Below, piece by piece: positions 7,686-64,000 of a stretch of 64,000 bases of DNA (the stretch's first letter is position 1; each line of letters opens with the position of its first letter). Below the pieces are notes generated by a model, which saw nothing but the letters and a program-made list of their open reading frames with translations, did no database searches and was not told the origin of the DNA. A program made the position numbers and the translations under genes. Source of the stretch: an uncultured archaeon. Its GTDB lineage: Archaea; Aenigmatarchaeota; Aenigmatarchaeia; CG10238-14. The DNA lies in assembly GCA_964392445.1 (NCBI GenBank), contig CAYMPD010000003.1:2573-66572 (forward strand), written 5' to 3'.

Positions 7686-8084
7686 ATGTTATTAGGAAGA
7701 AAAGAATATATTTTTCCAAAAATTCAAAGGATATGTATGGTGGATCAGTCATTAGTGATGTTATCAGATATATTGGGTTTATCTGCGAAGGAATTATTAT
7801 ATCCTCAAGTTGTACTTACCGTAATTCTACCCGTGGTTGCTAACCTTATCTGTTTTTATAGTCTTCATAGGGAATTAAGAGTCTTTGGAAGAGGTACTTT
7901 GAATGATTTTATAAGCATCGGACTTGCTGTGATATTTTCCTTTTTCGCAGTAAGGCTTGGTTTTGTGGGATATGGATTGGCATCTATTGGTATTAGTTTT
8001 GTTTATTTTAAGAATGACGTTACTAGGTTATTGGTTGTAATTTTTTTACTTGGATTTTATACTGGAGTTAGTTTTTTGATTTGA
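7686..8084 (+). CDS. hypothetical membrane protein
   Basis: 132 aa, about 4 predicted TM helices. Confidence 0.4.
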   Translation: MLLGRKEYIFPKIQRICMVDQSLVMLSDILGLSAKELLYPQVVLTVILPVVANLICFYSLHRELRVFGRGTLNDFISIGLAVIFSFFAVRLGFVGYGLASIGISFVYFKNDVTRLLVVIFLLGFYTGVSFLI

Positions 8085-8140
8085 GAAAATTAGGTATCAG
8101 CTGTCGCTGTTGTTCTCTGAGTACCTGTTGAAAGACCACC

Positions 8141-8722
8141 TCAAATAGCATCATAACCTTCCCTTATGTTGTTAACTACGTTGCTGAAGAATTTTGGATT
8201 TCTATGTAAGAAATACAAAGCTCCTGCTGCGGCTAGAGTTCCTACAACCGCTCTTCTAGTTCTCAATTCTTTGTTTCTATCACGTAAAGTATACTCATGC
8301 CATAAAGTAGTGGCATAATCCATGAGAGTTCTCTCTTCTTCTGCTCTTCTCTTTCTTTTATTTAATTTTCTTTGTTCAGAAAAAGCGTACCAGGGTGTGG
8401 TTTCTCTCAATATTTCTACCTTCCCTAACTCAGAAGTGTTTCTCTCATATAATTCATCCCATTTTTTTTGAGCTTCTTGATAAGTTTTTATAGCTTCGGG
8501 TATATCCCCGCCTTCCATATTGCCTTGTACTCTGTGTATTTCTTCCTGCATAAGAACATATTTAGGTAGCCTATGATCAGTCTCATACGCGATACCATAC
8601 AATTTGTTTCTTTCTCTCCTTTGATTAGACCTTTCAATGTAACCAGGGAAAAAAGAGTCTCTTAAATTCTGGACAGCTGCTTCTAAAGGATCTAAAAGAT
8701 CTGCAAGCGCTTCAACCATCAT
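8141..8722 (-). CDS. hypothetical protein
   Basis: 193-aa ORF with charged helical regions and C-terminal hydrophobic segment; no motif recognised. Confidence 0.4.
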   Translation of the reverse strand: MMVEALADLLDPLEAAVQNLRDSFFPGYIERSNQRRERNKLYGIAYETDHRLPKYVLMQEEIHRVQGNMEGGDIPEAIKTYQEAQKKWDELYERNTSELGKVEILRETTPWYAFSEQRKLNKRKRRAEEERTLMDYATTLWHEYTLRDRNKELRTRRAVVGTLAAAGALYFLHRNPKFFSNVVNNIREGYDAI

Positions 8723-8787: not shown

Positions 8788-9528
8788 TTACTGTCTTTCC
8801 ATCTGTTGAATGCTGGCCCTTACTTGATCTATCCTTGCCTTAACTTTATCTAAATTACTTTCTATTTTAGCTTTTTTTTCTGCATCATCGGTAGCTGATA
8901 ACTGTCTAAGCAATTGAGCTTCTGTAGCCATTAATTCCCTAAGTTGACGCTTATCTTGTTTTATAAGTTCCCATTTGGTCTCTGCAATTTGGGCTTCAGC
9001 TCCCATGCTTCCCCTAGCTTTGATGAACAAGAACCAAATACCCGTGAAAAATAGAAGTGCCCAAATACCAAAAGCGTATATAGGACCTATAGTAAAGATT
9101 ATTCCAACAAAATAACCGAAAATATGAACACGTCCAATAAAAATTATCATAAGAAAACTAAGAACCACGTTAATCCAATCCATTCCTCTACCAAATATTC
9201 TTAGTCTACTCATAAAACCGAAAGTAACTAAAAATACGGCTACAAATGGAACTAAAATGTCCATTAGGAATCTTGGTGGTCCCCAATTTCTCTCATAATA
9301 ATTGTCTCTTCCAAGTACTCTAAAATTAAATGCTCCGAAAAAATTCATGTTTTGTGTTGACTGAGGGAAACCAAGCCAATACAGGAAAAAGTTCACAAAA
9401 CAATCATATAACCCTCCATTACCTATCCCAGAACAGGCTGGAGTAAGAGGGAAAGGTGGTATAAGCTCAGCAAAAACCCAACTAAAACTAAGTAGAATAA
9501 CTAAAGTAGTGACAAATATCTTTTTCAT
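8788..9528 (-). CDS. membrane protein with C-terminal coiled coil
   Basis: Signal peptide, about 5 TM helices, then 80-aa coiled coil (…AEAQIAETKWELIKQDKRQLREL…). Confidence 0.45.
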   Translation of the reverse strand: MKKIFVTTLVILLSFSWVFAELIPPFPLTPACSGIGNGGLYDCFVNFFLYWLGFPQSTQNMNFFGAFNFRVLGRDNYYERNWGPPRFLMDILVPFVAVFLVTFGFMSRLRIFGRGMDWINVVLSFLMIIFIGRVHIFGYFVGIIFTIGPIYAFGIWALLFFTGIWFLFIKARGSMGAEAQIAETKWELIKQDKRQLRELMATEAQLLRQLSATDDAEKKAKIESNLDKVKARIDQVRASIQQMERQ

Positions 9529-10956: not shown

Positions 10957-11349
10957 TTAACTTTTCTGATTTTCTCTTAACTTACCAACAACGTCATAAA
11001 TAGAAACTAATCCTGCATACTTTCCCTCGGCATCAACAACTGGCATAGATAGAAAGTGTTTATCGACCATAGTTTTAGAAACAATCTTTAAATCCTCTTC
11101 CAATTTCGCTGTGACAACTGGTGTACTCATTATCTCAGATACTCTGATCTCTGAGCAGTCTTTACCTGCAGCCACTACTTTTTCCAATATATCTCTTACA
11201 CTGACGATACCCACAGGAACTTGATTTTCTAATACTACAGTATGATTAAACTCGTAATTTCCTTTCATTTTCTGAGCCACACTAGAAATTTTATCTTCCT
11301 TTTCACATCTGGGATAGTCATCTGTTATATCGCAATCTTTTACCTTCAT
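10957..11349 (-). CDS. CBS domain pair protein
   Basis: 130 aa, two CBS-like repeats (…VSVRDILEKV…, …GLVSIYDVVGKL…). Confidence 0.65.
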   Translation of the reverse strand: MKVKDCDITDDYPRCEKEDKISSVAQKMKGNYEFNHTVVLENQVPVGIVSVRDILEKVVAAGKDCSEIRVSEIMSTPVVTAKLEEDLKIVSKTMVDKHFLSMPVVDAEGKYAGLVSIYDVVGKLRENQKS

Positions 11350-11402
11350 ACAAAAACTATTAAATTCATTTAAATTTAAGTTTAATTATTAAGGAGATTG
11401 TT

Positions 11403-11936
11403 ATGGCTCGCAGGAGAAGAGATAGAAAATCGTTGAGAGAACATTTGTCAAACGTAGTTAGGGATATTGTACCTTATGGAATAGATGTAGGTATCGGGAC
11501 CTTATATGAGAGCGTCGACTGGGCAGATGAAGCTATCGCTGATTTGATTTCGATTGCTAGTGGTGGTACCGGAGCCGTTCCTGCACAAGCTGCCGAAGAA
11601 GGTATTGATAATTTAGCAATTACATTCACGAATAGATTATATGACATAGCTGGAGATCTTTATCAAGCACTTGATTTAATGACACCAGAAGAGCGTAGGA
11701 CAAGAGATAGGGTGATAAGAGGGGCATCTTATACAGAGAGAGCACAAATAGGCCCAGCAGATGTAATCCCATCTTATATAGGCGCATCTGTAGGTTATTA
11801 CGGAATTAGAACGATAAGAGATACCAGGAAAGCGTTTGAGGATTTGGGATCATGGTTAAGGGAAAATGTGTATAAATTAAGAGAAGACCTAAAACAGAAA
11901 AGGTCTAAAAAAGATTTTTCATCATCTATGGCATAA
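11403..11936 (+). CDS. hypothetical protein (locally GC-richer)
   Basis: 177-aa ORF; composition differs from flanks; no motif recognised. Confidence 0.35.
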   Translation: MARRRRDRKSLREHLSNVVRDIVPYGIDVGIGTLYESVDWADEAIADLISIASGGTGAVPAQAAEEGIDNLAITFTNRLYDIAGDLYQALDLMTPEERRTRDRVIRGASYTERAQIGPADVIPSYIGASVGYYGIRTIRDTRKAFEDLGSWLRENVYKLREDLKQKRSKKDFSSSMA

Positions 11937-12480: not shown

Positions 12481-12723
12481 TTACCATGGGAGGACTGATA
12501 AAAGAAGACCGAACCCTATCATTCCGAATGCAATAACTTGTAAAAGCCATTTACTTGCAAGACCAGTAATTCCACAAATTATACCTGTAAAAAGTTTTGT
12601 AATTCCATGTTCAACCGAACTTCGGCAGATAGCACTTTCAATAGGAACTATCATAAAGGATAATAAAAGTAGGAACACACCTATCAACAAAACTGTCTGC
12701 CCGCTTTTTCCCATAATATTCAA
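12481..12723 (-). CDS. small membrane protein
   Basis: 80 aa, 3 predicted TM helices. Confidence 0.35.
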   Translation of the reverse strand: MNIMGKSGQTVLLIGVFLLLLSFMIVPIESAICRSSVEHGITKLFTGIICGITGLASKWLLQVIAFGMIGFGLLLSVLPW

Positions 12724-12761
12724 TATAAAATAATATTTTCGGATATATAAATTTATTAGAA

Positions 12762-14210
12762 TTATTCTACCTCTTCCCCAACAACCCTAATAACATCCTT
12801 AGGATCAACCTTACCCCTGATTTTAGCCATCACAAAACCGATAATCTTACCTTTAGGAGCATTTTTATTCTTATCAATAATCTTTTTTACCAGTTCTCTC
12901 AACTCATTCTCAGAAATATTTTCTATTCCTAATTTCTCAACACATTCCTTGACAGAAAGTTTTTCATTCTTCAGTTTAAGTCTGAGAACATCATCTATCG
13001 ACTCTTTCATGACTTCGCCCGCGGAAATTAATTCAAACAATTCCTCAAAATCTTTTTCCGTTAATTTATCAACATCCAAGCCTTCACTTTCCAAATAAAC
13101 CAAAGTATTCACAAAAACACTAGCAACCAACGTAGGATCAACATCTGATTCCTCAGCAAACTTCTCAAACCACTCACTGTAATCGGAATTAACAACCTGC
13201 TTAGCAAGATTCTTAGATAAACCTAAATCCTGATATTTCTTGATCCTCTCGCCAAAAGTCTCAGGAATATTCTTTTTAACTTCTTCTAGTAACTCATCAG
13301 TTTTAATCGGTATAACATCTGTTTCAGGATACATCCGTGAAGCCCCAGGCAATGGTCTTAGGAATTCAGTCGACCCATCTGGTAAAACTCGACGAACATC
13401 TCTAGAAACTTTCTTACCTTTTTTAATTATCTCCTGCTGCCTTTTAATCTCCTTTTCAATAACTGTTGGAATAAGTGATAAACTAGGAACATGTTTTCCT
13501 TCAACCCTATCCCCTCCTTTTATCGATATATTAACATCCTGACGGACTGAGCCTTCTCGAATCTTGGCTTTACCTGTACTTCTAATCATGTTTCCTATCT
13601 TCTTAGCAACCTCCCTCGCATGTTCTGATGAGACAATCCCTTTCCCTGTCCCTACTTCAACCTCAGGGGTACCCAATCTATCCAAACGGAAGGTAACAGA
13701 ATTCTTATCTTTTTTTATCAGTCTTCCCGAATCTTCTTCCAATGTCACTGCTTCTATTTCCACTTTCCCCTTATCAGTTTCTAGCCAACCATCCATCCCA
13801 ATTAACATAGTTCTTTGAAATCCTGAAGGTAAACTCCCGTCCACAATCGTCTTTCTCATAACTTGAATCTCATCAACGACCTCACAGTGAAGTAATTCTG
13901 CTATAGTAAGTACAACTTTCAACGCTTCCTGATTGACTCCGTGTGGGGGCTCTTCATCTATATCAACCAGACAATCACAATCCTCATAAACCTCATAAAT
14001 TATCTTCTTCCTTTTCTTCATCTCCTCTATCGCAGCAACATCTATCTCCCCAGTCTCCCCAGCAACCGGTATTTGATGCCTTTCAAGAATAAAGTCTGGC
14101 TCTTCTTTTGTTTTCAGTAGAGTAGGGCAGCTACAAAACAGCTTTTCACTTGTATCTAATTCATGATGTATTTCCAAACCTACTCTTAATCCGATTTTTT
14201 TGTAGTCCAT
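12762..14210 (-). CDS. gatE: Glu-tRNA(Gln) amidotransferase subunit E (GatE; GatB/E family)
   Basis: N-terminal GLEIHHELDT..KLFCSCPT GatB/E motif; adjacent to gatD (the archaeal partner), hence GatE rather than GatB. Confidence 0.75.
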   Translation of the reverse strand: MDYKKIGLRVGLEIHHELDTSEKLFCSCPTLLKTKEEPDFILERHQIPVAGETGEIDVAAIEEMKKRKKIIYEVYEDCDCLVDIDEEPPHGVNQEALKVVLTIAELLHCEVVDEIQVMRKTIVDGSLPSGFQRTMLIGMDGWLETDKGKVEIEAVTLEEDSGRLIKKDKNSVTFRLDRLGTPEVEVGTGKGIVSSEHAREVAKKIGNMIRSTGKAKIREGSVRQDVNISIKGGDRVEGKHVPSLSLIPTVIEKEIKRQQEIIKKGKKVSRDVRRVLPDGSTEFLRPLPGASRMYPETDVIPIKTDELLEEVKKNIPETFGERIKKYQDLGLSKNLAKQVVNSDYSEWFEKFAEESDVDPTLVASVFVNTLVYLESEGLDVDKLTEKDFEELFELISAGEVMKESIDDVLRLKLKNEKLSVKECVEKLGIENISENELRELVKKIIDKNKNAPKGKIIGFVMAKIRGKVDPKDVIRVVGEEVE

Positions 14211-16585: not shown

Positions 16586-19291
16586 AGGAACAAACAACCT
16601 AGACTTCTTACTGCCATTCTTAAAAACAATCTCCCCTCCGCAAGAATTACATTTACCAGTTAAAGGAGGTCTTCTATAAACATTATTACAACTGTTGCAT
16701 ATGAAACCATCTATCTCCGAAACACTATCCTCAAAATCATCCTTCTGTTTATTATTTTTCATGGCTTCTAGTATACCAAGTTGTTTGCCTATACCCGTCA
16801 ACTCGGACTTACTGACCCTCAAAGCCTCAAAAACCCTTTCTAATGGGGGTAACAACTGACTTTCGATATAATATTTGGAATCTATTGGTATGCTATGTTC
16901 TTTAATGTAATCAGGGTCTTCTGCACGCTTGGATATCATCTGAACTCCTCTAACAATAACATAACCAACCCTATCACCTACACCTGGAGCAGAAGCTGGA
17001 TCCCTTTTCATCATTTTTTTAACTAATTCCACATGAGGCTGAACGCCCTTATACTTACTAGGAGATCTTGAGATGCTCTTGGTTATAACTAATTTTTCAA
17101 TTGGAATTTTACCCGATTTAAGGTCGTCAACAGTCTTTTTAACGAACTTTACTGCTTTCCTGACATCCTGTTCTTTAAGTATAATCTCGAGAACCTCTTT
17201 TAGTGTCTCAGAAACCAAATCACACCAGTCCCTCCTGACAGTTTCTATACCCTTAGTAAGAATACTCTCATCCCAACCATCAGCCATAGGTTCAAAGTTC
17301 CAAGCGGCATATCTTTTTTTGGCGAGTAGAAGAAGAACCTTAAAAATACTTTCAACCTTCATGTGAAGTACGTGATTTATTCCCTCGTTTATCGTCTCTG
17401 ATACCTCTTCCCCTACTTTAAAGGCTTCTTCTAGATCCTTTGTATCTAATTTAATCATTACGCTGTCCGTATCGCCATATATAACCTTATAATCAGTTTT
17501 TTTATGAACTATTTCCCTGCTTTTCTTAATCATATCCCTTCCAACACTCGTAATCCCACTCGCAATATCAATAACATAAAACCTCGCACGAATATAACCT
17601 GAATAACCGTAAAATGCATTAGCAACAGTCTTGAATGCATATTGTTTGGCATAGAGATAATTCTTCTTACTGTCAGTTTTCGCCTTCTTCATCTTTTTTT
17701 TAATTTTTCCCCTCGCATCCAGAAGATAATCTAAAACGTGTGGTAAAATTCCCTTCCTAACATCCCCAGTAACAAACCTAGAACCAAAAGGTGTCTCCTT
17801 GTATTCGATATCGTCTTTCTTCCCCCTCAGAAGCGTGGTTGGACAAATGTTAAAACTGATAACAATCGAAGGGTACATACTGTGAAAATCTAGATAAGTG
17901 GTACAAGTATCATGAAATCCAACATCCGGTTTTAGAACAAATGCTCCCTTCAAACCACTACTCCTTCTTTCAGCCTTTCTCCTAGATATCTCACGATTAT
18001 CCGGTCTACAAGGAATAATAAAATCCTTCTTGTTAAATTCTCTCAGAAGAATACTATCTATCCTTTCGGTTTCGCCCCTATACAGACAATCCTGAAGGGT
18101 TATTCCTGAAACTTTCGATATCTCTACAAACTTGTCCAACATACTTTTCTTAAACAATATCTTAAGAGGTAATTCAGCGTCCTTTCTACTGTAACTTAAC
18201 AATTTACCTAACTTATCACCATTATCATTCCAATAATCGGCTATCTCACTGTGTGCAACGTCAACCTTATCTTCACCTAAAACATTTTTTGATACGTCCC
18301 CCAAACCATATCTTTTCAGACCTTTGAACAAACCGAATTTGTTAGCGGCTTCTTTAACCAAACTATAAACATCTGCTGATACTCTCCCTGGTATTGTCAC
18401 TTTAGTTCTTCCCATAAATGTCGATGTCCGAATTGGTTTCTGATCACATCTACCTAATGTGTTGGGAACATTGTTCTCCTTTAATCTCGTATCAATATAT
18501 GGTAAATCGAAGTTATTGGTGTTATAACCTAGGATAATATCAGGATCGAATTGGTCAATAATTTTCACAAATTCCTCAAGCATTTCTTTCTCTGAATTAA
18601 AACTAACTATGTCGTCGTCATATTTCTTAATCTTCCTCGCGGCTAAAACTAGAGTGTTCCTGTTTTTGTACGAAGGAAAGAATGACATGCTTATGAGAAT
18701 AATTGGTTCTTTTTTTGGATTAGGTTCTGATCCACCGGTGAAATATGTTTCTATATCAAAACTTAGGTAATGGAATTTCATGTTTTCATCTTTGTCTATC
18801 TCTTTGAAACTTCTTGCCCTAAATTTTTTTGTTGTCTTCACGCTGTTTGTTTTTGTATAACTTCCTTCAACCTCATACCACTTCATCCCAAAAATGTTCA
18901 TATCAGCCATAAATCTGTACTTGAAAAGAATGTCAGCCTCAAATATTTCCTTTACGATTTTTTTTTCTTTTAAATTATCCCTGACTACTGGTGTTTTACT
19001 TGGATTGTTTAAAGTTAGTTTGAGAATTTTGGTTTTCTTCTCTTGGTATCCTATCGGAAGGAATTTTTTGACGTAACTCATCTTCACAACATACTGACTA
19101 AAGTTTTTCTTGGCATATTCCTTTACTTCATCGAATTTTTCCTCTTTTGGTAAAACGTAAAAATAAGGTTCAAAATCATCATAAAAAACACAGGTTGATT
19201 TTCCTTTATCAGTCCGCCCAAAGAGACGAATTATTGGTTTGTTGTTTACAAGAACATAATCCGAGTCGAGAACCTGAAATTTTATTTTCAT
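16580..19291 (-). CDS. polB: family B DNA polymerase
   Basis: Exo I FDIETY; motif A DFHSMYPSI; motif C YGDTDS; C-terminal Cys4 zinc finger; 903 aa. Confidence 0.95.
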   Translation of the reverse strand: MKIKFQVLDSDYVLVNNKPIIRLFGRTDKGKSTCVFYDDFEPYFYVLPKEEKFDEVKEYAKKNFSQYVVKMSYVKKFLPIGYQEKKTKILKLTLNNPSKTPVVRDNLKEKKIVKEIFEADILFKYRFMADMNIFGMKWYEVEGSYTKTNSVKTTKKFRARSFKEIDKDENMKFHYLSFDIETYFTGGSEPNPKKEPIILISMSFFPSYKNRNTLVLAARKIKKYDDDIVSFNSEKEMLEEFVKIIDQFDPDIILGYNTNNFDLPYIDTRLKENNVPNTLGRCDQKPIRTSTFMGRTKVTIPGRVSADVYSLVKEAANKFGLFKGLKRYGLGDVSKNVLGEDKVDVAHSEIADYWNDNGDKLGKLLSYSRKDAELPLKILFKKSMLDKFVEISKVSGITLQDCLYRGETERIDSILLREFNKKDFIIPCRPDNREISRRKAERRSSGLKGAFVLKPDVGFHDTCTTYLDFHSMYPSIVISFNICPTTLLRGKKDDIEYKETPFGSRFVTGDVRKGILPHVLDYLLDARGKIKKKMKKAKTDSKKNYLYAKQYAFKTVANAFYGYSGYIRARFYVIDIASGITSVGRDMIKKSREIVHKKTDYKVIYGDTDSVMIKLDTKDLEEAFKVGEEVSETINEGINHVLHMKVESIFKVLLLLAKKRYAAWNFEPMADGWDESILTKGIETVRRDWCDLVSETLKEVLEIILKEQDVRKAVKFVKKTVDDLKSGKIPIEKLVITKSISRSPSKYKGVQPHVELVKKMMKRDPASAPGVGDRVGYVIVRGVQMISKRAEDPDYIKEHSIPIDSKYYIESQLLPPLERVFEALRVSKSELTGIGKQLGILEAMKNNKQKDDFEDSVSEIDGFICNSCNNVYRRPPLTGKCNSCGGEIVFKNGSKKSRLFVPG

Positions 19292-19349: not shown

Positions 19350-20384
19350 TTAAATACCCTTTTCTTCAATTTCTCTAGACTTCATGTTCACAATGAAATA
19401 TTTGTTTCTTTTGTTGTTTGAGATGATTGTGGTTCCATGATAATTCTTGTGGTAATTCTTCTCATTGGAAAACAATACTATATCTGGAATTTGTTCGAGG
19501 ACAAAATAACCAAGTAATCCTTCTTCTCTTATCAATCTCTTGTTCAGAGTTTGTTCCGTATTTACTTTCTTTGGTACTGTTAAAATTTTTATACCCCCTA
19601 CGTCAAACATAGAAGCGTTTTCGTCCTCTGATATCAAAAAAACATTATCAAATTCCTTTATGACCTCTTCATCCTCCCAACCACCGTAAATAAAAATAGG
19701 ATCGGTCTTCCTAGTTTTCTTTAAAATATCAATTAACTTCCCTTGTTTTTCTTCCTCAAGTGTTGATGGTTTGTAGAGATATATCAAGTTTACTTTTTTC
19801 TTTGTTTTTTTAATCTCCCTTGTCATAGATACTTCAGGATAAATGATTTTTTTGATGTAAATCTCTCCTTCTTTCCTTTCACATTTAATCCCAATTATAT
19901 CATCCAGTTCTATTTTATCCACTTCCTTTTTCAAGTCATCATCAAAAAAAATATTTGTTTCACCTGTCTCGTCTTCAACCACTAAATTATTCATGTTCTT
20001 TCTCCTGACCGACACTATCACCGAGAAATTGGTTGTTTTGGGTGTTATTTTATTAACAGAGATCATTTTTTTGAGTTGTGTGTTATTGAGTAATATTTCT
20101 TTTATTTTTGTATATATTTCTGAAAACTTTCTGGTGTAATCTTCTGTTTTTAATTTACCCTTCTCAAATGAGAATTCCCTGATCAACTCGACCTTGATTT
20201 TTTTATCTTTTTTTATGTCTTCCGATTTCTCCAAATGTTTTTTCGATACTATAAACGGTCTTGGGGTTAGGTTATGTACCAGAGAGAGATACTTTTCTGG
20301 GTTTTTGTTTACTATAGGCAAAGCTTCTTGGGACAACTGAAACCCATTATCCAGAAATAACTTAACTGTCTCTTCTTCTTTCAT
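19350..20384 (-). CDS. DP1-like (PolD small subunit / eukaryotic B-subunit-like) protein with apparently inactivated, truncated phosphoesterase domain
   Basis: N-terminal LFLDNGFQLSQEALPIV resembles DP1 N-domain; OB-fold segment FSVIVSVRRKNMNNLVVEDETGETNIFF; positions corresponding to PDE motifs (DxH, GD, GNHD) read LYKPST, IYGGWED, ISEDEN (catalytic residues absent). Confidence 0.45.
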   Translation of the reverse strand: MKEEETVKLFLDNGFQLSQEALPIVNKNPEKYLSLVHNLTPRPFIVSKKHLEKSEDIKKDKKIKVELIREFSFEKGKLKTEDYTRKFSEIYTKIKEILLNNTQLKKMISVNKITPKTTNFSVIVSVRRKNMNNLVVEDETGETNIFFDDDLKKEVDKIELDDIIGIKCERKEGEIYIKKIIYPEVSMTREIKKTKKKVNLIYLYKPSTLEEEKQGKLIDILKKTRKTDPIFIYGGWEDEEVIKEFDNVFLISEDENASMFDVGGIKILTVPKKVNTEQTLNKRLIREEGLLGYFVLEQIPDIVLFSNEKNYHKNYHGTTIISNNKRNKYFIVNMKSREIEEKGI

Positions 20385-29029: not shown

Positions 29030-29845
29030 TTAATCACTTGTTTTAGAAATGGTTGATAATCTTCCACCCGTCAGAATATTTGAGGACCAGTCTCGCTCTT
29101 TTCTAATCATTATTCTGAAACCTTTGTCGAGTATTTTTTTAGTGTATAAGTTCTTATCGAAGTCTTTAATTATCTTACTTATTTTGATTAATGAATCCAC
29201 GATCTCTTCCTGTTCACTATTTCCCTCAGCCTCAACTTTTATATGAATTGGCGCGAAACATTTAGGATCACTATTTTCTAAAATATAACAGCCTTCATAA
29301 CCCCCAATAATCCTGGATATAGTATCCTTAAGTCCAATTATTTCTTTTTGTGTGAATAGTAGGTTCTCATCGGGTTTAGCATCTTGGTGAAACGTTTCAT
29401 CATCTTTATACATCTTACTTGTTTCTACAACCCAAAGATGGAGGTATGCGACCGACATCACCACACAATGATTTTTATCACTTGGAGAAATCTTGTCTCT
29501 TAGTACATTAATGAACATTATAAGGTCATTCGAATCGAGATTATTTAATGTGGTTCTTATCATATCTCTGAGTAATTCTAATTGTTCTTCGTTTTCTGGA
29601 TCGAATTTAAGAAACGAGACTAATTTATGTTGTTTGAGAAAATAGTTGTTCGGGACTATTAAATCCGCTTTTGACTCCTCACCTTTAACTATTGAAGGCC
29701 TGTTGATGTTCGGGAATCCCGTGCAAATATTACCTTTGTACAATCCAGGAACTTCTTTATTTTTATACTGATAATCCCAAAAAGCTTTTTCAGCTGGTCC
29801 TAAGGATATTCCTAAGTTCTCGTAAAAATCTTCTATTTCTCTCAC
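29030..29845 (-). CDS. hypothetical protein in t6A gene cluster
   Basis: 271 aa, between tsaC-tsaE fusion and tsaD with 4-nt overlaps on both sides; no motif recognised. Confidence 0.4.
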   Translation of the reverse strand: MREIEDFYENLGISLGPAEKAFWDYQYKNKEVPGLYKGNICTGFPNINRPSIVKGEESKADLIVPNNYFLKQHKLVSFLKFDPENEEQLELLRDMIRTTLNNLDSNDLIMFINVLRDKISPSDKNHCVVMSVAYLHLWVVETSKMYKDDETFHQDAKPDENLLFTQKEIIGLKDTISRIIGGYEGCYILENSDPKCFAPIHIKVEAEGNSEQEEIVDSLIKISKIIKDFDKNLYTKKILDKGFRIMIRKERDWSSNILTGGRLSTISKTSD

Positions 29846-40349: not shown

Positions 40350-41051
40350 TTATAATTTCAAAGATACAAATGGAAATGTATTTTTAAATCTATTTGCATC
40401 CTCCTCTTTCCCAATTATCACATCAAAGATGGGTTTTTTAGATACGTTGTGCTTCCAGCTAGATGTAAATGGAGAAATATTAAATCTATTTAATGCTTTT
40501 TTGATATCAGAGGAGAGAGCTTCACTTGAAGACGTGAATGAAATTCTACCGTTCTTATTCCCTCCATCGGCTAAGAAAAGACCAGACAGGAAGAATTTCA
40601 AACAACCCATGTTCTTCTTTATATAATCTGGGATTTTTACTTTATCGCTTTTTTTACCACATGGTATCTCGAAAATTTTGTTGAATAAGGTCCAAACAGC
40701 TTTATTATCAAACTCAATTTTCCATCTAATTTTCCTATTCTCTCTTGTGTCTAGTTTTTTCTTTAGTTTAAGATCAAGTTTGAAAGTTTTATTAAATTTT
40801 AACATCACAAGTTTCATCAATCCTCTATTGGCCATTTCTATAGTTATTCTAAATCTACCATCCTTTGTTAAATGACCATCTCCGATAATGATTCCGGAAA
40901 GAAAGGACAAATCAGGAGTTACATTTATAGGTATTTCTCTAATATTTTTACCCCAGAAATTTGATTTACACCAAATTTTTTCCGAATTTTTCTTAACAAC
41001 TGCTATTCTAGTATCCTTTTCTATTTCTTTGACAAATTCGTTGAAATTCAT
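40350..41051 (-). CDS. LAGLIDADG homing endonuclease (two-motif, single chain)
   Basis: LSGIIIGDGHL and LSGLFLADGG motifs; stop codon abuts the 5' end of tRNA-Leu. Confidence 0.7.
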   Translation of the reverse strand: MNFNEFVKEIEKDTRIAVVKKNSEKIWCKSNFWGKNIREIPINVTPDLSFLSGIIIGDGHLTKDGRFRITIEMANRGLMKLVMLKFNKTFKLDLKLKKKLDTRENRKIRWKIEFDNKAVWTLFNKIFEIPCGKKSDKVKIPDYIKKNMGCLKFFLSGLFLADGGNKNGRISFTSSSEALSSDIKKALNRFNISPFTSSWKHNVSKKPIFDVIIGKEEDANRFKNTFPFVSLKL

Positions 41052-41954: not shown

Positions 41955-42043
41955 TGGGCCGAACAGGATTTGAACCTGTGATTTCTGCCATTTTGATTCG
42001 AAAATCGTCAAGGCAGCGTCTTAACCAACTGGACCATCGGCCC
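41955..42043 (-). tRNA. tRNA-Val(GAC) with 15-nt intron
   Basis: Acceptor gggccga/tcggccc; anticodon stem ctgcc/ggcag; loop TTGACGA; 15-nt insert; T-arm acagg-ttcaaat-cctgt; 89 nt. Confidence 0.7.
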
Positions 42044-57771: not shown

Positions 57772-58014
57772 TTATAAACCATATCTCCTAAAAAAGTCAG
57801 AGTCCTCGACGAGTTCCCGTTCTAATTCTATCTCGAAATCAGAATCTCCTTGCATTGTTAATAAATAGCTAGAATTCACTTCTTCTGTCCTTTTCGGAAG
57901 ATCGAGAACTTCATAAAGGACATCTACAGATATTTCTGAGTACCCAGGTGGTTGTCTTACACATTCAAGTGAAGTCCGTCTACAGTAAAGGGGTTCTCCG
58001 TCCATATTTTTCAC
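57772..58014 (-). CDS. hypothetical acidic small protein
   Basis: 80-aa ORF; its upstream region carries repeat copy A. Confidence 0.3.
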   Translation of the reverse strand: MKNMDGEPLYCRRTSLECVRQPPGYSEISVDVLYEVLDLPKRTEEVNSSYLLTMQGDSDFEIELERELVEDSDFFRRYGL

Positions 58015-58084: not shown

Positions 58085-58137
58085 CTTGTCAAAGTTTGGT
58101 TCTGATATTACTTAGATCTAATCCTTGGTTTTTGAGT
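58085..58137. repeat. about 53-bp direct repeat copy A (Fic-flanking)
   Basis: cttgtcaaagtttggttctgatattacttagatctaatccttggtttttgagt; 47/53 identical to copy B. Confidence 0.8.
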
Positions 58138-58149
58138 AGCTAGAAAATC

Positions 58150-59130
58150 CTAGATATAATCAACTTCTTTGATATATTTCACAATAAGTTTTACAAAAGG
58201 TTTTAGATTACCTTCATTCGCTTTGTTTAGAGCTAAAAAATACCTTCTTTTATCCCTATTTTTGATATCGATCATCGGATAACCCTTCTTCTTCAGAATA
58301 AAATTTAGTATTAGTCTTCCTGTTCTACCATTACCATCTATAAAGGGATGAATGTTTTCGAAAACAGAGTGAAAATATGCTGCTACAACAACTGGATGAT
58401 ATTTGCTTTTATTGTAACCATACCATCTCATTAGTTTTGTGAATTCTTCGTTGACTTTATCTGGTTTAGGTGGGATTACGTTTGATCCAGCGATGAAAAC
58501 TTGGACATCTCTGAAAACCCCTGCTTTTTCTTTGAGTATATTATGCATAAGTTTCTTATGGATATTTAAAATGAATTTCCTTGTGAGATTACCTTTATAA
58601 TTTATCATGTAGTCAAATGCATCTTTGTGGTTCTTAATCCAATCTATTTCCCAAAGTTCTTTTCCTTTTGGTGTGGTATTTTCGAATAACACTAATTTTG
58701 TCTCAATTAGATTTAATGTAGAACCTTCTATTGCGTTTGTGTTGTAGGTGAATTTTGTTAGGAACCATTCATAGTATTTTTCCCACCCAGCTTTTCCAAG
58801 TTTTTTAAGGTATTTGGAGTATTCTTTTTTAATTTCTTCTAATTTTCCAAGTTCTTTCTGTTTTAAGATACCCATCAAAGGATCGTTTGATTTGAGGAAG
58901 TTAGTGACTTTATTTTGGAGTTTTTTCTTGTTCTTTTTTGTTAATTTTTTTATTTCTTTCTCAGTTTTCTCGCCCTTTCCAAGATAAACTCTGATCTTCT
59001 TCCATTTTTTCCCATTTCTTATATTTTCAGTTAAATAGTGGTACTTATTCCCTTTTTTTTCAATAACCTCGTGATACATAATAATAGTTTGGGCACACTT
59101 ATTTAAATAATTATCATCAATTGTGCACAA
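58150..59130 (-). CDS. Fic/Doc family protein with intramolecular inhibitory motif
   Basis: Fic motif HPFIDGNGRTGRL; upstream TNAIEG matches (S/T)xxxE(G/N) inhibitory helix motif; 326 aa. Confidence 0.8.
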   Translation of the reverse strand: MCTIDDNYLNKCAQTIIMYHEVIEKKGNKYHYLTENIRNGKKWKKIRVYLGKGEKTEKEIKKLTKKNKKKLQNKVTNFLKSNDPLMGILKQKELGKLEEIKKEYSKYLKKLGKAGWEKYYEWFLTKFTYNTNAIEGSTLNLIETKLVLFENTTPKGKELWEIDWIKNHKDAFDYMINYKGNLTRKFILNIHKKLMHNILKEKAGVFRDVQVFIAGSNVIPPKPDKVNEEFTKLMRWYGYNKSKYHPVVVAAYFHSVFENIHPFIDGNGRTGRLILNFILKKKGYPMIDIKNRDKRRYFLALNKANEGNLKPFVKLIVKYIKEVDYI

Positions 59131-59180
59131 ACTAATGCTTCATATCTTTTAGTCAATTAAACAATTTTTACCATAATCGA

Positions 59181-59234
59181 CTCGTCAAAGTTTGGTCTCG
59201 ATATTACTTAGATCTAATCCTTGTTGTTTGAGTC
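59181..59234. repeat. about 53-bp direct repeat copy B (Fic-flanking)
   Basis: ctcgtcaaagtttggtctcgatattacttagatctaatccttgttgtttgagt. Confidence 0.8.
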
Positions 59235-59358
59235 TTAGGATAAAAAATTATTGGTATGGTACGTCAAGGGGGTTTAAGGAAAAGGAAATTATATTACCAA
59301 TTTTAATTCCTTTGAAGGAAAGTTAAATATTTAAATATTTTCACCTATTATAATAGAT

Positions 59359-59631
59359 ATGGAAATTGATAAAAAGGATGAGAAAAAATCAAAAATGGAA
59401 AACAGTGAAAGTTCGAGGGAGAGATTTAAAAGACTTGCGATGGCCAGAACTAATACTGTACTTAAAAAATTAGATGTTCTTGGAAATTGTGCAAATCGAT
59501 ATGTTTATGAATACACCCAAGAAGATATACAAAAAATTTTCGATACTATTAATAAAAAGATAAAAGAAACGAAATTACTTTTTGATTCTGGTTTGGTGTC
59601 TAAGAAAAGGGAGGTTGAGTTTAAACTCTAG
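59359..59631 (+). CDS. hypothetical small protein
   Basis: 90-aa ORF, first gene of plus-strand cluster. Confidence 0.35.
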   Translation: MEIDKKDEKKSKMENSESSRERFKRLAMARTNTVLKKLDVLGNCANRYVYEYTQEDIQKIFDTINKKIKETKLLFDSGLVSKKREVEFKL

Positions 59632-59641
59632 GTTGATCAAT

Positions 59642-60223
59642 ATGGGAGATAGAATTGATTTTAGTAAGCAAAATTTATGGAGACTCCCCGATGATATTAA
59701 AAAACGTGTAGTTAAGCATAAGACCCCATCTTCAAAAGAGGAGGGTGAAATAAGTAAATGGATCGCAATAGCCTTAGCTAGATTAGATACCCATGATGAA
59801 ATGAGAGACATTGCAAAACAAATCCATCCTTCTACTGAATATAAACCTTTTAATAAAGCTATCACGGCTTACAAAAAGACTTCTGAAGATACCAAAAAAG
59901 ATGTAAGGGAAGGAAAAATTCCTATAATGAGATTAATAAGAAATGGAACTGAAAATAAAAGAATATCAAAAGAGGATCAAGAGAATTGGATTTTATATAA
60001 GAACGCGAAAAAGGTACAGGATCAATTGAATTTATTTTATAAAAATTTGAAAGTTTTTTTAGATGGGACACCCGAAGATAGAAAATATCTTAAAGAGTTT
60101 CTGAAACCTCAAAAAATCCATTATATAGCTTCTTTGTTATCCTGTATAAGGAATGAGGAACTTCTGAAATCTTTTAAAAAGCAACAGGGAATTAAATCTT
60201 TAGAGGAATTTAGGGGTGAGTAA
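59642..60223 (+). CDS. hypothetical protein (start moved to MGDRIDF…)
   Basis: About 193 aa; stop 2 nt before the GHKL ATPase gene start (coupled). Confidence 0.4.
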   Translation: MGDRIDFSKQNLWRLPDDIKKRVVKHKTPSSKEEGEISKWIAIALARLDTHDEMRDIAKQIHPSTEYKPFNKAITAYKKTSEDTKKDVREGKIPIMRLIRNGTENKRISKEDQENWILYKNAKKVQDQLNLFYKNLKVFLDGTPEDRKYLKEFLKPQKIHYIASLLSCIRNEELLKSFKKQQGIKSLEEFRGE

Positions 60224-60225
60224 AA

Positions 60226-61995
60226 ATGAGTAAAGAGTATCTCGGAAAATTGAAAATTCCCGAGGATCAAATGGATTGGGTTATAAGTCAACTGGGAAAA
60301 ACTTTCAGATATCCTTTTCATGCTTTTAGGCAATATATTGATAATGCAAAAGATTCTGTTAAAATAAGAAAAATGTACGATAATTCTTTTTCTGAAGAAG
60401 AAAAATTAATAAAAATAGAACTCATGCGTAGTAAGAATAGGGATGAAAGAAAAATAAGAATTGTGGATTTCGGGACTGGTATTACACCTAAAGAGGCTGT
60501 GTGGGAAACTCCTCAAGGAGATATAATAAGGGATGAAAAAGGAGAGAAGATTCCTTACATAAATAGTTTTAGATACATGAAAAATAATGTTGCAAATTCT
60601 GTTAAGAGGGCTCAAAAAGAAGTTACAGGAGAAAAAGCTGTAGGAATGTTGGCTTTCCTAAAATTAAATTGCAAAAAATTAAAATTCATAAGTAAAGTTT
60701 CCTCAACAGGGGAAACATATACTTATAGTATTAACGAAAATCTCGAGTGCCATTGGGAAAGGGGCGGGGATAAAAAATTCAAAGAGTCAGGGACTGAAGT
60801 TATTTTAGAAGGGATGCACGGTAAAACATTTGAAAATTATTTTAATCCTCGTAGGTTAAAACTAAATTTACGTAAAATATATCACCAGGATCTCTTGAGA
60901 GACATTATTAAAATTTCAGTAGAATATATAATCGCTGATAAAAAAGTAAAAGGAAGAGGAAGGAAGAGAGAGAGCCCTTTTTTTGAGATAAAACCAATGA
61001 AAATCACGGGTGAGCAGTTTGAGCCAACACAAATTAAGACAAAAACAGGAAAACTTGTAAGTATCAATTTAAAATTAACGGATAAACCAAGGAAAGATCC
61101 TTTCATAAGAATCAATAATAGAGGTACTGGGGGGGTTCCAGCTGAAACAGTCTTTTATAACCCAATTTGGGAGAATGAATATACCCAAGGTTTTATTGAT
61201 GTTGATTTTCTAAATTTTGCAGGTCATGACAAGAGCAGTTTTGAACAGGATAAAACTTTGGAAGAATTGGAAAATGCATTAGAAGAAAAAGTAGTCCCAA
61301 AACTTGCTGAAAATATCAGTGAAATAAAGAAGAGAAAGTCTCAAAGAAATATAATGGATACAATAGAAATTCTGAAGGTAGCCCTTTCTAGAACTATTAA
61401 AAATTTAGACATTCGGATAGAAGGTACGGTCGAGAGAACAAAAACATGTCCTCAATGTGGGAAAAAATTATCTTATAATCATAAGTTTTGTCCTGATTGC
61501 GGTTATGAATTCCCTCGAGCGACTAAACATTGTAGATTTTGTGACGAAGAAATACCTTCCAATGCTAAAACTTGCCCTAAGTGTGGTAAAAATCTGATAG
61601 AAAAAATAAAATGTAAATATTGTGGTGAATTAATACCAGAATTAAGTAGAGTCTGTCCAGAATGTGGAGAAAGGTTAAGATCTAAAAGAAAGGAACCGAA
61701 GGGCAAGACACCAGATATATTTCCTCAACCTTTAGGTCCAGAAGGTCCCCGAAGTGCTATTGATAAAGAAAATGGGCATCTAAGGGTTATTCAGATAAAC
61801 CAGGATCACAGTGATTATCAAAGGGCTCTAGAAGAGGGTTATGATAAGCTTTATATGTCCATTCTGACCTCCAAAGAAATTGCAAAATTTATGTATGGAG
61901 AGGAGAAATCTGATTATACGGAGGATCTTTTGGAAATATTTTTAGAGATATTTAATGAGTTAATAACTATAAAATCAATAGACTATAGAGAGTGA
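60226..61995 (+). CDS. MORC-like GHKL-family ATPase with four C-terminal zinc ribbons
   Basis: Bergerat-fold motifs: N-box FRQYIDNAKDS, G1 IVDFGTGI, G2 GEKAVGMLAF; C-terminal CPQCG…CPDCG, CRFCD…CPKCG, CKYCG…CPECG (4 CxxC pairs). Confidence 0.6.
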   Translation: MSKEYLGKLKIPEDQMDWVISQLGKTFRYPFHAFRQYIDNAKDSVKIRKMYDNSFSEEEKLIKIELMRSKNRDERKIRIVDFGTGITPKEAVWETPQGDIIRDEKGEKIPYINSFRYMKNNVANSVKRAQKEVTGEKAVGMLAFLKLNCKKLKFISKVSSTGETYTYSINENLECHWERGGDKKFKESGTEVILEGMHGKTFENYFNPRRLKLNLRKIYHQDLLRDIIKISVEYIIADKKVKGRGRKRESPFFEIKPMKITGEQFEPTQIKTKTGKLVSINLKLTDKPRKDPFIRINNRGTGGVPAETVFYNPIWENEYTQGFIDVDFLNFAGHDKSSFEQDKTLEELENALEEKVVPKLAENISEIKKRKSQRNIMDTIEILKVALSRTIKNLDIRIEGTVERTKTCPQCGKKLSYNHKFCPDCGYEFPRATKHCRFCDEEIPSNAKTCPKCGKNLIEKIKCKYCGELIPELSRVCPECGERLRSKRKEPKGKTPDIFPQPLGPEGPRSAIDKENGHLRVIQINQDHSDYQRALEEGYDKLYMSILTSKEIAKFMYGEEKSDYTEDLLEIFLEIFNELITIKSIDYRE

Positions 61996-62141
61996 TGCTG
62001 TATATCTTCATTAATACTATTAATTATTTTGATAGAGTAATTTATTTCCCCTCCCCTCTAATCCCTTTTAATAACTTTCTGTAATATCAACCCGAATTAA
62101 ATTACCGATCTTTTTATCTCCACACCCGAATTAATTAACTA

Positions 62142-62720
62142 ATGAAAGATGTTAATCCGTTTAAAATTGAAGAAAAAATGGTATTAGAAATTATTCGTGA
62201 TTCTTCTAAACATATGAAGGGACTGATGAAATACCTTCAAGAGATAGATGTGGATTTGAAAAGTAAGTTGAAATCAGAGATATTTAGTAAGCTCGTGGAA
62301 ATAAACAGTGCAAAAATATTTTCTAAATATCTAGGATATGAAGTCATAGCTGCAAAATCTGACAGGGACCCAGACCTATACTTTACCAAATTAGAAAAGC
62401 CTCTGGAGGTGAAAATTACAGTCACGAAAGGTACTTGGACGGGGGGCGAATTCAGTAAAAGAACTTCTCATTATTTACTTATTTCCCGTAGTCGTAATTT
62501 TGATAAATTTTTTGTAACTTTAGTTTTTTTGAAAGAGGATGAATGGGAATCCAGTATGGAAAAAGGATATAATTTCTATGGGCCACGTCTCTCTAAAAAA
62601 TATCTATATGGTAAAGATGAAAAAATTATCTTCCTGGGGGGTTTAGTAAAAGAGGAAAATAGGAAAACTCCTACATTGATTAGGGAGAGTATAAATTCTA
62701 AAAACCTATCCGAATTTTAG
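62142..62720 (+). CDS. PD-(D/E)xK nuclease-fold protein (restriction endonuclease candidate)
   Basis: GYEV…DPDLYFTKLEKPLEVKITV gives E…PD…ExK spacing; tail-to-tail with methyltransferase gene. Confidence 0.45.
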   Translation: MKDVNPFKIEEKMVLEIIRDSSKHMKGLMKYLQEIDVDLKSKLKSEIFSKLVEINSAKIFSKYLGYEVIAAKSDRDPDLYFTKLEKPLEVKITVTKGTWTGGEFSKRTSHYLLISRSRNFDKFFVTLVFLKEDEWESSMEKGYNFYGPRLSKKYLYGKDEKIIFLGGLVKEENRKTPTLIRESINSKNLSEF

Positions 62721-62724
62721 ACAC

Positions 62725-64000
62725 CTATTTCTCAAAAATTAGTACACTCTCCTTTTTAATATTCCCATAACTCGTCTTTTGCAACTCTCTTCTTATCAAC
62801 TTATCTTGCTTGAATCCCAAGTTCTTCCCAATATCAGCCAACACCTTACTATTTGGTATTTCCACAAAGTCTCCATTTACTTTGAAATGATTATTTCCTA
62901 TAATAACCGCAGCTTTACTACCTTTTTTCATAACCCTTTTCATCTCCTTAAACGAATAGAACATATCTATGAAGAATTTGTAAACCCTCAAAGCCGCATT
63001 TTTCCTTCCATTGTTAAGAAGTAATTCAACGTATTTATGAGCTAATTTTGATATTTTGAGTGGATCTTTTTCTTCATCCTCAATCATTTCCAGTAATTCT
63101 TCCTTGTCATAATTTATCCTAGGATTACCCATCATATTCTGTTCCAGATCCTCCTTGGAATCTACGAGTTTTAACATTCTCAATTGAGGATAGTCATTTT
63201 TAATATAATCCAAAGCCGTTGAATAAGGTGGAGAATTTACAATGCCATTAATTTGTCCAGGATTAATCACATCCATAGCTCTGGTGTCAGTACAGTGAGT
63301 TTCTGAAGCACCGGGTTTTATTTTCAGTAAATCATTTAATTCATGGAAAAGGAATAATCTCAAATAGATATCATTTAAACGATCTTCAAAAACACTATAA
63401 AACTCATTCTTAGTTCTTCTAGCCACATCGCTTATTGAACCAGATAAAGCTAATAAAAAGAACTCCTTAATTGGACCTTCTTTCATTTTTTTAATCAATT
63501 CTCTTGCTATTATAATCTTTTTTACAACATCTACACTATTCCTAAACTTTGCAAAGTCCGTAACATCCTTATATAATTCTTCAGCCTCTTTTTCGACTTC
63601 CTCAAACTCAATTCCATTGTTCCCTAGAGTTTCTTGTCCCCTTACGTTGGTCTCAAATATTTTTATCTTCCTTTTCAATTCAACTAAATACTCATCAATA
63701 TTTTTTTTCAATTCTTTTGGTTCAATTTTTAGAGAATTACATTTCACATTAGACATCAAAACCGATAAAGGGTTTATTTCGACTCCTCTACTATCCAATT
63801 CAATATGTGATGCTTCTAGAAGTAAAGTACCACTACCTGCGAAATTATCTAATACTACACCTTCACTCTTAGGATAAACATAATTCAATAACGCACGTAC
63901 CATTTTTGGATGGAACTTTCCCTTGTAAGGATGAATGTAGTGATTAAGATATAATGAAGGCTCTTCGCGAATAGCAAAATAGTCTTCTAGTCTTTTCCCT
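62725..64000 (-). CDS. DNA methyltransferase (N6-adenine/N4-cytosine type), 5'-partial: reading frame continues past window end
   Basis: Motif I VLDNFAGSGTLLLEA; motif IV NSPPYS; hand translation shows no stop upstream of the listed Met through position 64000. Confidence 0.7.
   Translation of the reverse strand, partial: GKRLEDYFAIREEPSLYLNHYIHPYKGKFHPKMVRALLNYVYPKSEGVVLDNFAGSGTLLLEASHIELDSRGVEINPLSVLMSNVKCNSLKIEPKELKKNIDEYLVELKRKIKIFETNVRGQETLGNNGIEFEEVEKEAEELYKDVTDFAKFRNSVDVVKKIIIARELIKKMKEGPIKEFFLLALSGSISDVARRTKNEFYSVFEDRLNDIYLRLFLFHELNDLLKIKPGASETHCTDTRAMDVINPGQINGIVNSPPYSTALDYIKNDYPQLRMLKLVDSKEDLEQNMMGNPRINYDKEELLEMIEDEEKDPLKISKLAHKYVELLLNNGRKNAALRVYKFFIDMFYSFKEMKRVMKKGSKAAVIIGNNHFKVNGDFVEIPNSKVLADIGKNLGFKQDKLIRRELQKTSYGNIKKESVLIFEK

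Follow-up and report, generated by a model that had tools for sequence, protein, structure and literature searches.

The subject of this work is a direct repeat around a Fic gene in a 64,000-nt stretch of DNA (hereafter the window) from an uncultured archaeon of the Aenigmatarchaeota (assembly GCA_964392445.1, contig CAYMPD010000003.1, positions 2,573 to 66,572 of the forward strand). Read on the minus strand, the repeat consists of the final 15 codons and the stop codon of a zinc-ribbon gene of about 99 aa with two CxxC motifs, found in relatives. The same gene end recurs in related loci around Fic and other cargo, in an array and as single copies at loci lacking Fic, and its copies vary in the manner of coding sequence. 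We consider it probable, with moderate confidence, that this gene end is a re-usable recombination site, similar to the attachment (att) sites of integrative elements, within the variable region between the RNase J and Nre genes of a group of Aenigmatarchaeota. The parts of the Fic unit in the window are as follows.

58085..58137, minus strand: copy A, an orphan 3'-end fragment of the zinc-ribbon gene; 58136 to 58089 reads LKNQGLDLSNIRTKL and a stop codon.
58150..59079, minus strand: Fic gene, 309 aa, of class II type; the sole gene between the copies, hence the cargo.
59080..59180, minus strand: Fic-type segment following the core (leader), with a TATA-like TTTAAATA, a conserved GTTTAATTGACTAAA block and an inverted pair.
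59181..59233, minus strand: copy B, zinc-ribbon gene 3' end; 59232 to 59185 reads LKQQGLDLSNIETKL and a stop codon.

Copies A and B came out of the repeat search as a 53-nt direct repeat with a start-to-start distance of 1096 nt and identical nucleotides at 47/53 positions, as the initial annotation of this DNA had described (about 53 bp, 89% identity, around the Fic gene). The sequences flanking the two copies are unlike, matching at 4/14 nt on one side and 4/20 on the other, so the repeat has sharp edges. A degenerate 40-nt core has exactly two sites in the 64-kb window, with none expected from 100 shuffles. Since an independent Logan assembly (SRR7048227, locus L002) is 100% identical across 2,739 bp covering both copies, the pair is not an assembly artefact. 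A wider search for the 53-mer, which the initial annotation had called for, yielded nothing further in the window and several copies in the related loci described below. In particular, nhmmer with the core profile detected no additional copies in the window, L009 or L016, and an exact 24-mer of the repeat had one match in metagenome contigs (L001) and none in genome contigs. A tRNA or non-coding RNA origin of the repeat was considered and rejected, as neither ARAGORN nor Rfam (at gathering and permissive thresholds) found any tRNA or RNA family at or near the copies.

Relatives of the zinc-ribbon gene were found by searching with the open reading frame (ORF) that enters the first repeat copy of L006, one of the related loci. 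Nine proteins of 76-104 aa (98-102 aa in 6/9; family P0243-P0251) have a conserved C-terminal half in common, and seven of the nine end in ...ILKRLKDQGLDFSNVxTKF or a close variant. Both CxxC motifs are present in all seven full-length proteins aligned. tblastn with P0243 and P0247 matched the window at 59235-59191 and 58136-58095, and the nhmmer core profile recognises the window copies with E=7e-18 and 7e-16. Fourteen copies of the unit align without gaps and 13 of them close with a stop codon (TGA, TAG or TAA; TGA in the window), the unit terminating precisely at this codon. Homology to the zinc-ribbon gene goes somewhat beyond the 53 nt: at copy B it extends to about 59247 (FFILRLKQQG...), and at copy A a weaker similarity continues to about 58154, into the Fic stop codon. 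The two fragments are all that the window contains of this gene; an intact version is absent, and in the window clade the zinc-ribbon ORF is dead, with stop codons directly upstream of the fragment.

At the 50% identity level the family comprises 191 representatives, and an RLKxxGL motif is conserved at the C-terminus. It has no match above cutoff among curated Pfam or NCBIfam models; structure prediction gave models of low confidence, for which no matching fold was found. Many representatives are 5'-truncated at a similar point, just before ...EKYEV..CPxCGK (e.g., P0249, P0262, P0337, P0341, P0372, P0394, P0398 and P0400), and a similar truncation is seen in the copies at 16542-16721 of L006 and 226-387 of L015. 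The shared truncation may reflect a second, longer duplication unit or a contig-edge effect.

The 3' end of the RNase J gene was also considered as the origin of the repeat, since in L003 the RNase J ORF runs into the repeat, and frame a of copy B matches its final residues. This origin was rejected because the conserved frame is the other one, which matches the zinc-ribbon gene; RNase J is merely adjacent.

The closest genome found is a metagenome-assembled genome (MAG) of a Candidatus Aenigmatarchaeota archaeon (L003, WJKS01000020.1), whose Nre protein is 86% identical. It has a single copy of the unit, overlapping the last codons of a beta-CASP "ribonuclease J" gene, and no Fic gene at this place. 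L004 and L005 likewise lack Fic; each has one copy, 45 nt past the stop codon of RNase J, after which come about 95 nt with homology to the stretch between copy B and Fic and, in place of Fic, a membrane-protein gene. The left side is the same in L001, where unrelated sequence sets in at the RNase J-side edge of the repeat. Remnants of the Fic-type leader are present in L001 and L004.

Fic is bracketed by the unit in two more loci. In L014, where Fic is 90% identical, both ends of a 1,118-nt contig with the order core-Fic-core lie within the unit, and the first 30 nt of the contig recur unchanged as its last 30 nt. If the Logan k-mer length is 31, as we assume, the overlap equals k-1 and fits a circular or tandemly repeated unit, which falls short of proof. 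In L015, where Fic is 75% identical, the unit forms the end of a zinc-ribbon gene with a truncated 5' part. Fic comes 60 nt further on, and a second copy starts 12 nt past the Fic stop codon, at the contig end. The distance of 12 nt between the Fic stop codon and the next copy is the same in the window, L014 and L015.

The cargo is different in L006, from a more distant relative whose RNase J is 76% identical. Here a 50-nt direct repeat (90% identical copies, spacing 738 nt) flanks a single NYN-domain gene in the same geometry as that around Fic. The repeat aligns with that of the window without gaps at about 69% identity, and its copies translate in the conserved frame to LKDQGIDFSNVTTKF and LKDQGLDFSNVTTRL, each followed by a stop codon. 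The window, L006, L014 and L015 each have a direct repeat of the target site on either side of an insert. The NYN leader of L006 contains an 11-bp stem with a UUCG loop (16775-16800).

L017 carries an array. Downstream of an intact zinc-ribbon gene (8001-8300), its end is repeated three more times, spaced by 672, 184 and 191 nt; an oppositely oriented gene precedes one of these copies. All four copies keep the frame and close with TAG, TAG, TGA and TAA. The spacers at 8973-9030 and 9200-9265 are unusually GC-rich for these AT-rich genomes, and one of them has an ATGATGA motif. Contigs with an intact zinc-ribbon gene tend to break off within about 170 nt of the gene end (L018, L019 and L020).

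The sequence that follows the core falls into classes linked to the cargo. The Fic-type leader stands at copy B of the window, in L014 and in L015, with the remnants in L001 and L004, while the NYN-type leader of L006 occurs again in L017 without the NYN gene (44 nt, 93% identical).

The 3' end of RNase J is duplicated as well in this region. In L006, a 218-nt direct repeat of it (11247-11464 and 12723-12940, 85% identical) brackets three small ORFs (59, 76 and 219 aa) without family matches, and L017 has an orphan 61-aa RMMBL fragment (5486-5671) upstream of the zinc-ribbon gene. Within this variable region, insertion may have occurred repeatedly at a second site, the 3' end of RNase J.

Variation among the copies has a coding character. 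Differences between the window and L006 fall mainly on codon positions 1 and 3 of one frame, and the 14 aligned copies have 12, 5 and 11 variable columns at the three codon positions. Compared with the gene's own end, the three extra copies of L017 differ at synonymous and non-synonymous codons in ratios of 4:1, 4:2 and 5:2, including a switch between serine codons (AGT to TCA). This pattern indicates that the copies diverged under selection to encode protein. Within a genome the copies are 89-90% identical and between lineages 69-71%. This likeness within genomes, despite a core-Fic-core arrangement shared by lineages in which Fic itself is only 75% identical, suggests that recombination at the site is ongoing, through re-insertion or conversion. 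The core of the window is 90-94% identical to that of L001 or L004, compared with about 80% for the Nre gene (nucleotide level) and 65-73% for other segments, so the core DNA is better conserved than its flanks despite the dead ORF in the window clade.

The Fic protein matches Pfam Fic PF02661 (2.4e-21). Its Fic motif HPFIDGNGRTGRL, which fits HxFx(D/E)GNGRxxR, begins at residue 244, and an inhibitory-type TNAIEG motif begins at residue 114 of the same chain, N-terminal to the Fic core, so the earlier observation of both motifs in one chain stands. Judged from these two sequence features, the protein would belong to the self-inhibited class II of Fic/Doc proteins. The closest solved structures are those of FICD (3e-33), which we take to be a member of this class, and PADLOC matched the protein to SoFic and PDC-S04. 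For the first 100 N-terminal residues no match to anything was found. Homologues are about 309-312 aa long with an N-terminus of MYHE..., and since this length fits 309 aa, the start codon is ATG 59079 and not TTG 59130. With this start, 102 nt separate copy B from the Fic gene downstream of it. Copy A is found 12 nt beyond the Fic stop codon, and about 80 nt downstream of this copy a 77-aa ORF begins (ATG at 58005); the distances of 50-70 bp to gene starts given by the initial annotation are thus too short. A large share of the closest Fic homologues is found on contigs of 1.1-1.6 kb, roughly the size of the cassette, as could be expected if assemblies break at flanking repeats or strain-variable insertions.

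The TATA-like TTTAAATA is located at about 59101-59108, 21-28 nt ahead of the Fic ATG and outside the repeat, and the segment around it is likely to be the Fic promoter. It is flanked by inverted GGGCAC (59090-59095) and GTGCAC (59122-59127). The leader segment is common to the window, L014 and L015, and occurs in L001 and L004 without Fic after it. The inverted GGGCAC/GTGC(A/C)C pair at the TATA-like box (59090-59128) is kept in the window, L014, L015 and L016, the last of which has Fic at an unrelated locus, without the core, yet with both the box and the inverted repeat. The pair is a candidate operator for Fic expression.

The surroundings of the unit are those of an archaeal chromosome: the window encodes Cdc6, TFIIB, Kae1, GatD/E, eIF2-alpha, RFC and Nre. 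Synteny with L001 and L003 reaches the repeat region and stops at copy B. The neighbouring features are listed below.

57772..58005, minus strand: 77-aa ORF in the same orientation as the repeat, without a family match.
59248..64000, no strand assigned: left part of the accessory island, non-syntenic, with ORFs of 90 and 193 aa, the 589-aa protein, the 192-aa ORF and the 392-aa methyltransferase (minus strand).
60226-61995, plus strand: 589-aa protein with a HATPase_c_3-type ATPase head and four zinc ribbons.
62142-62720, plus strand: 192-aa ORF without a family match.
62725-63903, minus strand: type II DNA methyltransferase, 392 aa, the only PADLOC match of this gene trio.

The 77-aa ORF may be a neighbouring cassette gene or chromosomal flank. 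The window contains neither the RNase J gene nor those genes that follow it in relatives. Database records place the Fic protein, the 589-aa protein and an RNase J (P0002, with 88% identity to its L003 counterpart) each on one NCBI contig of 93,132 bp, so RNase J is presumably located beyond the right end of the window, past position 64000. From about 59248 onward, the sequence would then represent an accessory island, at least 4.8 kb in size, that was inserted between copy B and RNase J. This fits the earlier suggestion that the repeats mark the entry point of such an island, with synteny lost at copy B and the methyltransferase and the ATPase/zinc-ribbon protein lying rightward. The 589-aa protein, the 192-aa ORF and the methyltransferase may form a restriction-like or novel defence module. 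A third copy of the unit, fused to RNase J at the far end of the island, was also considered; the C-terminus of P0002 argues against it.

We propose that the repeats arise in the following way. On a small DNA unit, a copy of the gene end would precede a promoter and a single cargo gene, and this unit would recombine with the resident copy of the gene end, presumably by means of a site-specific recombinase acting in trans. The outcome would be direct repeats around the cargo, with the end of the target gene complete and the older end moved downstream. Repeated insertion followed by internal deletion would lead to arrays. In the window, the zinc-ribbon gene would have been lost, and Fic with its own promoter would represent one unit with a period of 1096 bp. 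Sharp boundaries, cargo-specific sequence after the stop codon, varied cargos, loci with and without Fic, and arrays would all follow from this model. Coding-type variation in orphan copies would be expected too, because each of them was, or was selected to become, a working gene end.

A more far-reaching version, which we regard as tentative and less likely than not, is a cassette-capture platform that resembles integrons in outcome and not in chemistry. Each cassette (with Fic, NYN or another gene) would combine a single gene and its promoter with a copy of the last 20 or so zinc-ribbon codons. The cassettes would form circles, and a recombinase whose gene lies elsewhere would insert them at that gene end. 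In this way, defence or toxin genes would be assembled and reshuffled as an array beside RNase J, and the gene-end copy would be kept translatable since it serves as the working end of the target gene after each insertion.

Several observations weigh against a re-used att-like site. No integrase or recombinase was found in the 1.1-kb cassette, in the island up to 64000 or among 20 window ORFs of 161-482 aa, nor among the neighbours in related loci (Pfam; PHROGs for L006, L017, L020 and the window island). Virus contigs lack the unit, with zero true matches and three chance matches in a phage ORF, and no protein relatives of the unit were found in viral contigs. The identity of Fic between lineages (75-90%) is close to the divergence of host genes, so the core-Fic-core arrangement could be old and vertically inherited, its copies being matched by gene conversion. 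Comparison of related loci for the presence of Fic, also proposed in the initial annotation, did reveal Fic-less loci with a single copy and no exact before/after pair: an empty site with the 77-aa ORF, one core and the right flank was not found among the related loci, and the flanks are rearranged in L003, L004, L005 and at the gene's own end in L017. As the window lacks an intact zinc-ribbon gene, the idea of a restored gene end is inapplicable here. The terminal overlap of L014 could also be obtained from two copies sharing exactly 30 nt by chance. Finally, the C-terminus of P0002 (HTEHPEMVRKLLS and a stop codon), compared as protein sequence, diverges where the unit begins in L003 and shows no fused core, which speaks against an island simply bounded by a third copy at RNase J.

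With no recombinase, no viral carrier and no exact empty site, a passive relic stays a serious rival, even though we hold it to be unlikely. It supposes one ancient insertion or duplication of Fic in the zinc-ribbon 3' end, inherited vertically with occasional conversion or unequal crossing-over, and covers Campbell-type insertion by homologous recombination; neither a dedicated site-specific system nor current mobility is required. Apart from the missing recombinase, it is favoured by the identity of Fic, which is within the range of host genes (76-89% for RNase J), and by copies A and B of the window, which differ solely by non-synonymous changes, like drifting pieces of a pseudogene. It does not readily account for the bracketing of other cargo (NYN in L006) and for the four-copy array of L017 with its mostly synonymous differences. 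The contrast between 89-90% identity within and 69-71% between lineages would demand frequent conversion of 50-nt repeats, and the core outlasts the flanking genes in conservation although it is non-coding in the window clade. Repeated contig ends at the unit and the k-1 terminal overlap of L014 also speak against a relic.

The initial annotation offered two explanations, insertion of Fic by recombination at the repeats and a promoter or 5' untranslated region (UTR) module shared by two genes. The former is better supported in the modified form given here, with Fic bracketed twice more in relatives, NYN bracketed once, a four-copy array and single Fic-less copies. The latter, in which the 53-mer is a duplicated operator, promoter or 5'-UTR for Fic and the 77-aa ORF, we find distinctly improbable. 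A co-oriented gene does begin 60-170 nt past the copy in 5/7 contexts first examined, the core is more conserved than its flanks, and the window-clade copies contain a perfect 10-bp palindrome, TTAGATCTAA. However, the palindrome is missing from the L006, L015 and L017 versions, and the unit is the end of a coding gene, with codon-periodic variation and a retained stop codon. The TATA-like box and inverted repeat of Fic are located outside the repeat and are present in the core-less L016 locus. L017 has tandem copies without genes between them, some copies face convergent genes (L003 and the second copy of L006), and there is neither a predicted stable fold on either strand nor an Rfam match. 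Least probable of all, with hardly any weight in our view, is an integron-type array, with the repeats as attC sites of a cluster of attC sites lacking integron integrases (CALIN). attC sites act as folded single-stranded hairpins. The copies were folded as DNA on both strands, and none of the four strands folded better than shuffles (z = +0.4 to +1.05), the best fold being -3.2 kcal/mol and 126-171 of 200 shuffles folding at least as well, so the repeat is not an attC site. In addition, the unit directly copies the end of a coding gene, and neither IntI nor attI was found (window ORFs tested, L006, L017). What speaks for integrons is the layout, in which site-sized repeats separate single co-oriented genes at spacings below 4 kb (1096 nt in the window, 738 nt in L006, 672, 184 and 191 nt in L017), and the toxin-type cargo. 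Reports of archaeal integrons cover nine phyla, and CALINs have been described in archaeal MAGs, those of Aenigmatarchaeota included, with Aenigmatarchaeota attC sites being discussed (PMC9668308).

The att-like reading also has parallels among known systems. Insertion at the 3' end of a gene with a replacement end is found in phage 21 and e14 at icd of E. coli. Integrated mobile genetic elements of thaumarchaea insert into 3'-distal parts of protein genes, in one case a Zn-finger protein gene; crenarchaeal att sites are 29-69 bp long, and archaeal arrays that result from re-use of one att site have been noted (PMC6563490). As in these elements, direct repeats of the target 3' end flank the insert, the incoming copy supplies the stop codon, the repeat length (about 53-63 bp) is within 29-69 bp, and relatives exist with and without the insert. 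Unlike them, the present insert comprises one 0.9-kb gene plus promoter and lacks an integrase, just the end of the target gene is left in the window genome, and element-borne copies are conserved as coding sequence across a four-copy array. Cis-mobilisable elements (CIMEs), a term from work on integrative and conjugative elements of Streptococcus, are att-flanked islands without an integrase that are moved in trans. Serial att copies with cargo and no recombinase between them, together with decayed empty units (L017), recall such tandem accretion, whereas the units here are far smaller and no helper element or integrase was found. Integron cassettes and CALINs (PMC9668308) have in common with the present units the one-gene cassettes, the toxin-type cargo, the array at a fixed point and a possible circular intermediate. 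They differ in that the present units lack an attC hairpin, IntI and attI, have a coding gene end as the repeat and carry a promoter in each cassette. The dif modules of Acinetobacter plasmids consist of genes between short Xer sites and are moved by the host XerC/D. They are likewise small recombinase-less modules, often with toxin-antitoxin genes, between short conserved sites, and a host enzyme acting in trans in the same manner, for which XerA would be a candidate, would explain the absence of an integrase. In contrast to dif sites, the core has no dyad symmetry conserved across lineages. The cargo protein itself resembles class II Fic AMP-transferases (FICD/HYPE, SoFic) in having the Fic motif and an N-terminal (S/T)xxxE(G/N) motif in one chain, and differs from them in the 100 N-terminal residues that match nothing. 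Overall, the kind of event is known, being integration at gene 3' ends with tandem accretion, and the new element would be its use for one-gene cassettes in a DPANN archaeon.

Some other features of the window are located away from the repeats. Rfam detected a tRNA (41955-42043, minus strand, 57.5 bits) that was missed by ARAGORN and possibly contains an intron; it lies beside a tRNA-Arg, and an ORF with a LAGLIDADG domain (40350-41051, minus strand) is located directly downstream of the tRNA pair. Three minus-strand ORFs of 246-344 aa (8788-9528, 19350-20384 and 29030-29845) have no Pfam match (E<=1e-4) and stand in housekeeping surroundings.

The genomes of DPANN archaea are tiny, and very few mobile elements have been described in them. 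If the proposed reading is true, a re-used site that gathers single toxin or defence genes would show how DPANN symbionts exchange accessory genes, and the zinc-ribbon gene end of about 50 nt, possibly together with the RNase J 3' end, would mark variable regions in fragmented metagenomes. If a trans-acting recombinase exists, the locus would represent a second cassette-capture system, independent of hairpins. If there is none, it would still be a clean example of 3'-end re-use that leaves arrays of translatable gene ends.

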